Shown: one piece after another, positions 1 to 5,300 of the stretch
Layout of the letters: each line of letters opens with the position of its first letter
Numbering within the stretch: position 1 is the stretch's first letter
Assembly (NCBI GenBank): GCA_013239625.1
Contig: MU053645.1
Span: 620,001-684,000 of the forward strand
Direction: 5' to 3'
Origin: Lama guanicoe
Taxonomy: Eukaryota
Length of the DNA stretch: 64,000 bases
Made by a program: the position numbers and the translations under genes
Notes under the pieces: model-generated
Told to the model about the DNA's origin: nothing
The model's input: only the letters and a program-made list of their open reading frames with translations
Databases searched by the model: none

Positions 1-1350
1 TCAAAGTCCTAAACTTAAAACTAAAATTATAAAACCCTTAAAATAAATTCTTAATAGCATTAGATTCGGAAATATTTTATTGGATATGGCACCAAAAGAT
101 CAGGCAACAACAAAATAAAATTAGACCTCACTAAAATTAAGAACTTTTGCACATTGAAGGACACTATCAAGAAGAAGAAAAGATAACTACAGAGTGTGAG
201 AAAATATTTGCAAATCTTATAAGAGATTAATATCCAGAATATATTTTGAAAAACCCTATAATTCAATAACAAAGTCAATACAATTCAAAAATGGACAAAG
301 GACTTGAATAGACACTTCTTTCAAAGAAGATGTACAAATGATCAATAAGCACATAAAAAGCTGCTCAACATCATCCGTCATTAGGTAAGTACAATTACAA
401 ATCAGAATGTATAGCACAGGGAAATATACACAAAATGTTATGATAAATCACAGAGAAAAAAAATGTGACAATGAGTGTGTATATGTCTATGAATGACTGA
501 AAAATTGTGCTGAACACTGGAATTTGACACAGCATTGTAAAATGATTATAAATCAATAAAAAAAATCCTGAAAAAAAATTACAAATCAGAATGAGATACT
601 ACTTCAAACCTATTAAGATGACTATCATTTTTAAAAAACAAAAAACACATAAAATAAGTATTGGAGGTAATGTGGAGAAATTGGAGATCTGTGCATCACT
701 GATAGGAATATAAATTGTACAACCACTGTGGAAACTAGTGATTTCTCAAAAGTTTAAACACAGATCTATCACATAACCCAGTAACTCCACTCCTAAGGAT
801 ATGGTGAAAAGAATTGAAGGCAGGGATTCAAACAGATATCTGAACACTGATGTTTTAGCAGCATTATTCAGAATAACCAAAAGATGGAAACAATCCAAGT
901 ATTCATCAGTAAATGAATGGAAAAACAAAATGTAGTATATAAATAAAATGAAATATATGATATGTGATGAAATATTACTCAGCCATAAAAAAGTAATGGA
1001 ATTTTGATATATGTTACAACATGGATGGACCTTGAAAACATCACGGTAAGTGAAGTAAACCAGAGATATTAAGACAAATATTATATGATTTATATGAAGT
1101 ACCTAGCATAAGCAAATTCATAGAGACAGAATAGAGGTTACCAGAGGATGGGGAAGAAGGGAAATGGGGAGTGAATGTTTTATGTGTACAGTTTATGTTT
1201 GAAATCTGGGATATAGATACTGGTGATAGATACACAACATTGTGAATGCATTTAAAATGCCACTGAATCATACATTTATAAATTGTTAAAATGATAAATA
1301 CCATGTATATTTTACTATAATAAAATGGTTAAAAATAATAAATAAATAAA
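1..1350 (+). mobile_element. Old LINE-1 (L1MB-like), decayed ORF2 3' part plus 3' UTR and A-rich tail; runs off the left edge
   Basis: L1 ORF2 3' motifs (aaaatggacaaaggacttgaatagacac; tcaacatcatccgtcattagg; tattactcagccataaaaa). L1MB-type 3' end (ggtgatagatacacaacattgtgaatgc...tatattttactataataaaa) and A-rich tail to ~1350. Many stops and frameshifts. Confidence 0.9.
410..576 (+). mobile_element. Young, heavily 5'-truncated camelid-type L1 3' end inserted in the older L1
   Basis: Cetartiodactyl/camelid L1 3' UTR (tatagcacagggaa...tgactgaaaaattgtgctgaacactggaatttgacacagcattgtaaa...aatcaataaaa) with A tail. Perfect 17-bp TSD AATTACAAATCAGAATG at 393-409 and 577-593. Confidence 0.88.
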
Positions 1351-1851
1351 ATGTTTATCTTAAATATAAATAGTCTAAATGCACCAATCAAAAGTGTTAT
1401 GATTAGCAGAGTGGATAAAAGAGTAAGATTCAAATATATACTGTTTACAAGAACTCATTTGAATTTCAATAACATAGGTATGTTTAATGTAAAAGGGCGG
1501 GAAAAGATATAGTATGAAATAATGAATACAAAAAGGAGCAGGAGTATCTATATTAATATTAGAGAAAGTAGATTTCAGAGCAAAGAAAACAACTAGAGAC
1601 AAACAGGTATATGACTTAATGATATAATAATCTATCAGGAAGACAAGATGACCCTAAAATGTGTGTGCACCAAACAACACAGCCTAGAAATACAAGAAGC
1701 AAAAACAGATGGAACTATAAAAAGGAATAGACAAATCAACAATTATAGTTGGATACTTCAAGATCCCCATCTCAGCAACTGATAGAACTAATAGACATAA
1801 GATCAGCAATTACATAGAACTGAAAACACAATCAAACAATAAGATCTAATT

Positions 1852-1882
1852 GACGAGATCGGGCACGTTCAGGGTGGTATGG
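1852..1882 (-). pseudogene. 5S rRNA 5'-end fragment (about nt 9-39), antisense, at the 5' end of a chimeric retrocopy
   Basis: GACGAGATCGGGCACGTTCAGGGTGGTATGG matches the reverse complement of vertebrate 5S rRNA nt 9-39 (CCATACCACCCTGAACGCGCCCGATCTCGTC) at 30/31. The single mismatch is a CpG-type transition. Confidence 0.9.
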
Positions 1883-1889
1883 AGTAAAA

Positions 1890-2397
1890 TATCTGAGGGT
1901 GGAATGAGACAGGAGGGAAGGGGGCAGGCCACAGCCACTCAAGGAATGACAGTAACCAAAATGGTAGAAGATTCACCTCCTAGTTGGCCTTGAGGATTAA
2001 GAGGTTTAACTTCTAGCAGAACTTGAGCTTCATTATACACTCATTGTAATATATTAACATGGTGAATAACATGCCCACAGGCACCATGACAGTCCCAAGG
2101 CTAGCCACAAAAGGTCAAAGAGTGGGAAATGGCCAGCTTCCTGGGAATCCCAGCCCCTTCCCCTTAGACTGGTCCTTCTACTTATTAGCATATGAAGTCA
2201 CCAAGCCCATAAAAACAAGCAACATGGCACGCTGCCCCTCTCTCTCTCCCTCTTCGGAGACGGCCGGAATTCTGTCTATGGAATGCGTACCTACTTTTAA
2301 TCTGAGCACCCAACCCCCACACCTCATGGCCTTTCTCTTGCCTTTTAATGTATCTCTCTGAATAAATCTACCTTTACTCAACTGTGAAAAAAAAAAA
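1890..2397 (+). mobile_element. L1-mediated retrocopy of an ERV RNA 3' end (PPT + U3 + R + poly(A)), probably ERV1 class
   Basis: Purine-rich tract GAGGGTGGAA (1895-1904) directly precedes the TG start (1905). TATA-like CATAAAA at 2208-2214, AATAAA at 2361-2366, A run at 2387-2397 in place of U5...CA. 13-bp TSD AAGATCTAATTGA (1841-1853) / AAGATCTCATTGA (2396-2408). Confidence 0.82.
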
Positions 2398-5300
2398 GAT
2401 CTCATTGAAATCAAGAGTGCTCCTCTTAACATCCGACTACATAATTTTTCTGTGTCCAAAGAACATTCTGATCACATTCTGCACCATAATACAAACATGA
2501 ACAAATTTAAAATAGTGAAATCATACAGGTTATGTTATCTGATCATAGTGGAATCAAAACAGAAATCAACGACAGAATGAAAACAGGAAAAATCTCCAAA
2601 CACTTGGAAATCAAACAACACATATCTAAAGAATGCATGGGCCAAAGAGGAAGTCACAAAGGAAATTTAAAAATACACAGAGCTGAATGTAAATAAATTC
2701 TCAACATATCAATTATGAGACGTAGGTAAAGAAGTTCTGAGAGGGAAATTTGTAGCACTAAATTCTTATATTAGAAACAAGGAAAGATCTGAAATCTATA
2801 GTCTAAGGTTCCTACTTCAAGAAACTAGAAAGATAAAGCAAAATAAGTCCAAAGCAAGAAGGAAGGAATAAACAGAAAAAATCAATAAAATTGAAAATGG
2901 GAAAACAAATTAAGAAAATCCATGAAACAAAAAGCTGGATTTTGGGGGAAAAAAATCAATGAAATGGATTATCATGTAGCAAGACTGACAAAAACTGAGA
3001 GAAGACATAAATCACCAATACCAGAAATGAAATAAGGGCTATTACTACAGATTGTACAGCCATTAAAAAAATAATAGGGGATTATTATGAACAACTTTAC
3101 TGGAGAATTCTACTAAATATTTAAAGAAAAATAAGCACCAGATTTTCCCAGTGTCTTCTAAAATATAGAGAGGAGAGAACATTTGCCAACTCATTATTTG
3201 AGGACAGTATTACTCTGATAACAAACCTAGAAAAAAAGTTCAAAAAAAGAAAACAGAGCAATGTCTCTCACAAGCTTAGATGTAAAAATCCTCAACAAAA
3301 TATCAGCAACAGAATTCAACAATGTATAAAAAACAATTATACACTGTGACCAAGTGGCATTTATACCAAGTAAGCCAAGATGGTTCAACATTTGAAATTC
3401 AATTAGTGTAATCTACCATATTAACAAGCTAAAGAAGAAAAATCATAGGATCATGTCAATTGACCGAGAAAAAGCATTTGACAAAATCCAACACTAATTT
3501 GTACATCTATATGATAAAACTCTTATCAAGTTAAAAATAGGAGCAAATTACCTCAAAATGATAAAAAAAAGCATTTGCCAAAAATCAATAGCTAACATCA
3601 TACTTAATTGTGAAAGACTGAATATTTTCCTTTGAATATCATCCACAAGGCAAGGATGTCTGCTGTTACCACACTTATCCAACATAATACTGGAAGTTCA
3701 AGGTACTGCAATAAGTCAAAAAAGGGTGAGGGCGGAAGCATACAGATTGTAAAGGAAGAAATAAATTTGAAGACGACATGATTGCCTAAATAGAAAATCC
3801 CAGGGAACCTACCAAAAACAGTAGAACTAATAAATAAGTTTAGCAATTTCACAAGATACAAGATAAGCATGCAAAAACTCAACTGCGTTTCTATATATGA
3901 ATAATAAACATGTGGAAACAAAAATTAAAAACACAATACCATTTATAATCTCTCCAAGGAAATGAAATAGTTAGGCATATACTTAATAAACCATGTACAG
4001 GACTTGTATGTTGAAAACTACAAAATACTGATGAAGGATATCAAAGAACAGTATATACATGGAGATAAATCATCTGTTCATAGACTGGAAGATTCAACAT
4101 AGTAAATATATCAACTCTCCCCAAATGGATTTTTAAGTATAATGTAATTCCTTTCCTAATCTCAGCCAGGTATTTTTCATAGACAGGCTTATTCCAAAAT
4201 TTATATGAAAAGTCACAGGCCCTAGAATAGTGAAAACAATCTTGACAAGGTAGAATTAATTAGGAAGAATTACTGTACCTAAAATAAGTTTTATTATATA
4301 GCTACACTTATCAAGATGGTATGGTATTTGTGGGGGATAAACACAAAGATCAATTGAAAAGATATCAAAGCCAGAAACAAATCCACAGAATCATGCAAAA
4401 TAGATTTCTGACAAAGGTGAAAAGTAATTCAACAGATGGAGGATAGCATTTTCAACGAATGATGCCAGAAAATTTGTACATCTATATGAAAAAAGAACTT
4501 TGACCTAAAACTCATTTATTGTATAAAAATTAAAATGGATCATAGACTTAAATATAAAATTTTAAACTATAAAGCTTTTAGGAAAAAATAGGAGAATATC
4601 TTAAGAATCTAGGGTTAGGCAAAGAGTTCTTAGACTTGACAACAAAAGCACAATCCATAAAAGGAAAAAAAATAATAAATCAGACATCATCAAATTAAAA
4701 ACATTTGCTCTTTTAAAGACACTTTTAAAGGAGGAAAAGATAACTTACACAGTGGAAGAAAATACTTACAAACCAAATATCCAACAAAGGGATAATATGT
4801 AGAATAAAAAAAAAACTCTAAAAAGAACAGTTAAAAAAAAACCAAAAACAAATCCAAATGATTCAATTAGAAAATGACCAGAAGACAGGGAGAGACAGTC
4901 CACCAAAGAGGATATACTGATGGCAAATAAGCACATGAAAAGCACTTAAAAAGTCATCAGGGAAATGCAAACTAAAACCTTGATGAAACATCAGTACACA
5001 GTTATTAGAGTGGCTAAAATAAAACAAAACTGACAATACCAAATGATGGCAAGGATGCAGGGAAACTGAATTGCTCATACATTGCTGTCAGGAATGTAAA
5101 ATGATACAGCCACTCTAGAAAACACTTTGTTAGTATCTTATAAAACTAAATATTTTACTACCATATAACCTAGAAATTTCAGTTTGGGGCATTTATCCCA
5201 GAGTAACGCTAACTTATTTCACACAAAAAGCTGTACACAGAAGTTTATAGCAGCTTTATTCATAAATGGCTCAAAACTGGAGAGAGCTCAGATATCCTTC

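Follow-up and report, generated by a model that had tools for sequence, protein, structure and literature searches.

The closest described relatives of the locus presented here are 27 human 5S/L1 chimeras (Law and Burns, Cell Genomics 2026; PMC13174262), in which the 5S piece is typically antisense and truncated, mostly comprising nt 1-45, and 20 of which have target-site duplications (TSDs). When we counted strands in Table S2 of that work, 23 of the 27 proved to be antisense. The same table includes cases with 5S nt 8-45, 10-45 and 3-40, and it scores AT/AAAG and CT/AAGA as motif-like. Twin priming is proposed there for the antisense chimeras, as it had been for inverted U5, U1, U2 and U6 copies joined to L1 (Group IV of Doucet et al., 2015; PMC4476161). 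The two components are also described one by one, namely tailless 5S rRNA retropseudogenes (Noll et al., 2015; PMC5322556) and L1-made processed pseudogenes of HERV-W (Grandi et al., 2016; PMC5016936). In addition, two-RNA insertions were reported after experimental induction of L1, where opposite orientation was read as two extended ends joined (PMC11702581), and microhomologies at tailless 3' junctions are stated to resemble those of 5'-inverted L1 (PMC2912911).

Our locus lies in a 64-kb window, i.e., the whole stretch of DNA that was analysed. As in the human 5S/L1 chimeras, an antisense 5' part of 5S is attached to the 5' end of a poly(A)-tailed retrocopy, inside one TSD pair. The locus differs in the 3' partner, which in a strict 5S/LINE-1 chimera is L1 RNA and here is the internal end and U3-R of an endogenous retrovirus (ERV), so that neither of the two RNAs is L1; the catalogue in PMC13174262 is L1-partner-based and human only. 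The inverted snRNA/L1 insertions of PMC4476161 have in common with it a 3'-truncated small RNA in opposite orientation, internal priming at the second target end and a short complementarity to the target, but they combine U5, U1, U2 or U6 with L1, while 5S and an ERV are combined here. As in that class, the small RNA is antisense at the 5' end, one TSD pair encloses the insertion (13 bp, class range 7-17 bp), and the 3' truncation lies at a favoured break point, where the RNA is complementary to the target. Tailless 5S retropseudogenes (PMC5322556) likewise have a preferred internal break, complementarity between target and RNA, and a 5S part without tail. They are, however, stand-alone, 5'-complete and have a TSD of their own, whereas the piece in the window lacks nt 1-8 and shares its TSD. 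The HERV-W pseudogenes of PMC5016936 show the same 3' LTR cut to U3-R, poly(A) and variable TSD, and their full-length members begin with R-U5 as does one relative of our copy, L014; they belong to another ERV family, and rRNA is unmentioned in the main text of that paper. Chimeras of the U6 type, attributed to template switching or ligation, carry the small RNA in sense orientation and at full length, unlike the antisense nt 9-39 found here. The original prediction was surprised by the antisense orientation. According to PMC13174262, however, this is how 5S/L1 chimeras usually look: the 5S is antisense and 3'-truncated and forms the 5' part of an insertion with poly(A), and twin priming has already been proposed as explanation. 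The class of the chimera is therefore known, and the new aspect is only the ERV transcript as partner. A full-text literature search, with most subscription papers outside its coverage, revealed no published case of an ERV retrocopy with an inverted piece of a small RNA, which does not establish absence from the literature.

Structure of the locus and its target site

The TSD pair consists of AAGATCTAATTGA (1841-1853) and AAGATCTCATTGA (2396-2408), 13 bp each and identical at 12/13 positions. On the + strand of the whole window only two 13-mers have at most one mismatch to the first TSD, i.e., the pair itself, which the repeat finder did not pick up because of the central mismatch. The last two bases of the 5' TSD, GA, are at the same time antisense 5S nt 39-38, and this overlap had been predicted. 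The 5S piece (1852-1882, - strand) represents nt 9-39 of the rRNA, antisense to the ERV part. It is followed on the + strand by the last ~24 nt of the ERV internal region (1881-1904), running to a purine tract at about 1895-1904, which is labelled PPT by its position and composition. The LTR begins with U3 (1905-2229), starting with TG at the same base as in solo LTRs, and continues into R (2230-2386) with AATAAA at 2361-2366. U5 is absent. The start of R near 2230 was placed from the 5' end of retrocopy L014. A poly(A) remnant of nine A (2387-2395) runs into the AA of the second TSD. All main parts of the layout given in the original prediction (TSD, 5S, PPT, U3-R, AATAAA, poly(A), TSD) were recovered at their positions. 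One 13-bp TSD pair brackets the antisense 5S piece and the poly(A)-tailed ERV retrocopy together, with 5S at the 5' end of the retrocopy, and the locus is a genuine single-copy chimera.

The insertion sits in a decayed, + strand L1 ORF2, whose sequence to the left of 1853 is taken up again at 2409-2871. Positions 2719-2868 (+) matched LINE-1 ORF2p residues 290-337 with E 1e-6 in a PDB sequence search; PDB searches with two other host frames gave nothing, and seven short host frames had no match in Pfam. Two more L1 3' ends, at window 1-560 and 560-1330, are situated directly upstream of the host L1.

The empty site was judged solely in host-L1 paralogues (~75-80% identical), with six stretches chosen from the left-flank search. 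In all six the alignment of the left flank stops at position 40, and that of the right flank sets in at 28-30 in the same register; hence the 13-mer is single-copy in the paralogues. This agrees with the single TSD expected beforehand, as far as paralogues with weak right-flank alignments go: three of the six alignments scored above all 200 shuffles, and the others were reached by 5, 8 and 5 shuffles. Paralogue L102 has the 13-mer of the first TSD, identical and in one copy, and the 5' TSD is accordingly native to the host L1. No host-L1 paralogues were present among the ERV and 5S loci previously collected, and the genome searches with the left and the right flank had no match in common. The L1 endonuclease motif is TTTT/AA. 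In the orientation of the retrocopy the cut site AT/AAGA agrees with TT/AAAA at 4 of 6 positions; both target ends are equal in this respect (4/6, neither perfect) and give no pointer to the end primed first. Four of the six paralogues have GAC where the right side in the window has GAA, so that the 5S priming match may have been 3 nt. Of 24 listed sequencing runs, 20 (9 studies, 5 organisms) contained 0.69-0.86 of 110 sampled words from 1600-2700, and this word content suggests that the insertion may predate several species and be common to related ones.

The 5S piece, its sister copies and the ERV partner

Window 1852-1882 matched antisense 5S from nt 39 to nt 9 at 30/31 positions, exactly as foreseen, while 0/100 shuffles gave a match. 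The sole mismatch is a CpG transition at 1865. Numbering follows a full-length 5S copy of the same genome, L038 (Rfam RF00001, 114.6 bits). The 31-nt piece went undetected in an Rfam scan of 1500-2800, which returned two sub-threshold matches only. Genome-wide the 31-mer had 119 matches at three mismatches or fewer and its reversed control had 0. Seventy of the 119 loci were examined, best-matching first. Their 5S 3' ends fell at nt 39-43 in 40 loci and at nt 86-93 in 22. In 33 of the 40 a TSD lies directly around the 5S piece, overlapping it by 1-6 nt in 30 of the 33, and these copies are tailless retropseudogenes; tailless copies of nt 1-39/40 with 13-19-bp TSDs made up 33 of the 70 loci. 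Two tailless copies of nt 1-41, L094 and L100, have near-identical flanks on different contigs and represent a duplicated locus or a repeat carrying the copy. The break in the window, nt 39, falls on the tailless-copy hot spot at nt 39-43, and together with the shared GA it is the trace normally left when a DNA end primes within 5S RNA. The window departs from the tailless copies in its second TSD, which is found 513 bases further on, behind the poly(A).

It had also been proposed that AGATC of the TSD could pair with 5S nt 41-45. This could not be upheld. AGATC is native host-L1 sequence, GATCT being present in 6/6 paralogues; the pairing would require a bulge of ~4 nt, and the 43 short-class 5S loci contained no other case of AGATC. 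Extended AGATC pairing as a necessary step was consequently rejected as unsupported, on its presence in paralogues and its absence from the other short-class loci. That longer pairing can take place is shown by locus L088, where the TSD end matches 5S at 8/9 nt.

At least three of the 70 5S loci, window included, have the inverted layout inside one TSD pair. Locus L050 (G000:C8898:14156347 region) consists of antisense 5S 1-89 and an L1 3' end, with a perfect 15-bp TSD and a TT/AAAA site. In L088/L107 (G000:C55224:20613872 region) an antisense 5S 5' piece is joined to an L1 3' end, and a perfect 14-bp TSD overlaps the 5S. L087 and L093 (the latter in the G000:C55231:21207925 region) are candidate inverted 5S/L1 chimeras, for which a second TSD was looked for and not found. 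The break of L093 is at 5S nt 9, and the L1 context, seen in L059, is ATGGGAG with the same ATGG microhomology as in the window. L099 was rejected as a chimera, being a plain tailless 5S copy within an L1. No TSD was present within the DNA examined at L044, L049 and L092.

At the other end of the 5S piece, ERV internal sequence begins directly, and comparison with ERV copies shows that TATGG (1878-1882; antisense 5S nt 13-9) is common to both RNAs. The few degenerate bases described earlier at this place do not exist, and there is no untemplated spacer. The junction has one G fewer than the ERV copies, which makes the microhomology 5 nt with loss of a G, or 2 nt (GG) without loss. The ERV sequence upstream of 1881 ends in TATGGGAGT in 16 of the 24 copies with internal sequence, while the window has TATGGAGT instead. 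ERV loci were collected by a genome search with window 1841-1960, which gave 808 candidates; 40 were scored and the best 30 taken, 29 of them other than the window. Matches of the 29 start at or near 1881 or at the LTR start, never inside the 5S piece, and since the ERV copies have their own ERV sequence upstream of 1881, the 5S is foreign to the ERV. None of the 29 carries 5S there. The 31-mer as part of the ERV internal consensus had been named as a finding that would overturn the chimera; 5S as an ERV component upstream of the PPT was ruled out, the best 5S matches in the 29 loci being just 12-14 nt.

The 5S-to-LTR junction itself was matched once genome-wide in each of two pattern searches, one of them with CpG-tolerant letters; the patterns were exact, and decayed copies could therefore escape this count. 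A multiplied 5S-LTR family, a 5S-containing ERV subfamily and a 5S-derived SINE were rejected on the single junction match and on 0/29 ERV loci. Recurrence with the same LTR family, a further expectation, was not found beyond that one match: what recurs is 5S joined to L1 tails, and the recurrent agent is thus the combination of 5S with L1 and not that with this ERV. The same counts bear on the idea that reverse transcription or recombination within a particle placed 5S in an ERV copy, whose RNA L1 subsequently retrocopied, with truncation inside the 5S piece. In favour of this idea, an association of snRNA copies with LTR elements is cited in PMC4476161. There is, however, no source element among the 29 ERV loci or behind the exact-pattern junction searches, and a truncation at random would have had to coincide with the hot spot of tailless copies and, in addition, to have GA in common with the target. 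We consider such an origin extremely improbable, and the related option of the original prediction, 5S cDNA made in an ERV particle, gained no support.

The ERV copy in the window ends after R. With an R-terminated LTR, missing U5, poly(A) and a TSD longer than that of an integrase, it has the features of an ERV processed pseudogene. An A-rich tail directly after R was present in 17 of the 29 other loci, while 10 run on into U5 and two were unclear, in a sample that is biased because the query contained internal sequence. Judging from the 17 A-tailed loci, L1 retrocopying of this ERV is common; six of them have a 15-19-bp TSD within the DNA examined. The nearest relative seen is L014, which reaches 89% across 535 alignment columns; it has the entire R-U5…U3-R-poly(A) arrangement and is flanked by a perfect 15-bp TSD. 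Five solo LTRs, 597-631 bp long, end with CA; 4-bp TSDs flank three of these five, which we take to point to class I ERVs.

Several further observations concern this family. Among loci L003-L027 it appears heavily L1-retrocopied, like HERV-W. The 5' R-U5 of L014, L010 and L013 is just ~1.5 kb from the tail, and a short (spliced or deleted) transcript therefore served as template. A primer-binding-site-like stretch after the 5' U5 (L013:927-950, L014:857-880) presumably resembles a tRNA-Lys site; the solo LTRs have 4-bp TSDs nonetheless. Polyadenylation in the window (2381-2387) lies ~7 nt downstream of the site in most other retrocopies of the family. In L005 (1483-1500) a poly(A) ERV retrocopy with a 15-bp TSD (14/15) has its 5' truncation at most 3 nt from the ERV start of the window, just upstream of the PPT, which may be chance; in L012 the ERV starts ~14 nt further upstream. 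Clustered LTR pieces were seen in L002 and L024, in the latter in inverted orientation within ~1 kb.

Origin of the chimera

The locus very probably arose by a single L1 ORF2p insertion, through twin priming in trans, with ERV poly(A) RNA and 5S RNA as templates and the two cDNAs joined at TATGG. A staggered cut, 13 bp apart, in the old L1 would have produced two 3' ends. The bottom-strand end would have primed on the poly(A) of the ERV transcript, giving a cDNA of R, U3, the PPT and a further 24 bases. The end of the top strand (…TTGA-3') may have annealed to 5S nt 38-39 over 2 (perhaps 3) bases, presumably the same priming spot as for stand-alone tailless 5S copies of this genome, and would then have copied 5S toward its 5' end. 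Joining of the two cDNAs at TATGG would have cost 5S nt 1-8 and one G. The structure, the TSD, both microhomologies, the hot-spot break, the single-copy target in paralogues and the sister chimeras are direct observations, while we infer ORF2p as the enzyme, one single event and the joining step. The first option of the original prediction, in which a separate 5S RNA served as template for the second target end within one L1-mediated event, is supported by the absence of 5S from ERV copies and by the single TSD in paralogues. The one mismatch in the TSD, the imperfect endonuclease sites, a 5S priming match of 2 nt and an empty site known from paralogues alone weaken the mechanism.

Successive insertions would leave an identical final sequence, if the TSD came from a tailless copy of 5S 1-39 and an ERV retrocopy later hit the start of the second TSD, deleting 5S nt 1-8 and producing no TSD of its own. 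Both ingredients are common, as tailless 5S copies make up 33/70 loci and ERV retrocopies 17/29, and the sequence alone is also compatible with a second insertion that deleted 8 nt of its target. This course of events is nevertheless very unlikely in our view: it demands a hit at one exact base plus the small deletion, the frequency of inverted layouts within one TSD pair (at least 3/70) would be far above that of independent hits, and in human the two parts mostly arrive together by multi-species alignment (found_by_msa_prediction column of PMC13174262 Table S2).

The microhomology at both 5S ends would equally fit end-joining, with free 5S cDNA or 5S pseudogene DNA patched in at the 5' end of a truncated ERV retrocopy. 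A filler of this kind should show no strand preference, whereas every TSD-verified case here, and 23/27 human ones (PMC13174262), have 5S in antisense orientation. No flanking DNA of a 5S pseudogene was brought along, and the target-side break coincides with the hot spot of target-primed tailless copies, which makes filler capture highly improbable.

A quite unlikely further reading concerns the ERV template, which could have been, in place of an ordinary ERV mRNA, a defined retroviral RNA piece starting just upstream of the PPT; ORF2p would have received it along with a cleaved piece of 5S out of the same particle or RNP. It draws on retrocopy L005, with its start within 3 nt of the same point. 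If true, the locus would record the L1 machinery integrating a retroviral reverse-transcription intermediate, with 5S sealing the other end.

Under twin priming in trans, the reading we prefer, the insertion is most likely a singleton that is dead and without function. Neither a new mechanism nor a function is apparent, and the locus adds one further data point for twin priming in trans. It indicates that inverted 5S capture works without L1 RNA as main template, both RNAs having here been mobilised in trans. The human 5S/L1 class is extended to another mammal, with three verified cases among 70 loci, and is tied to the tailless-5S hot spot.
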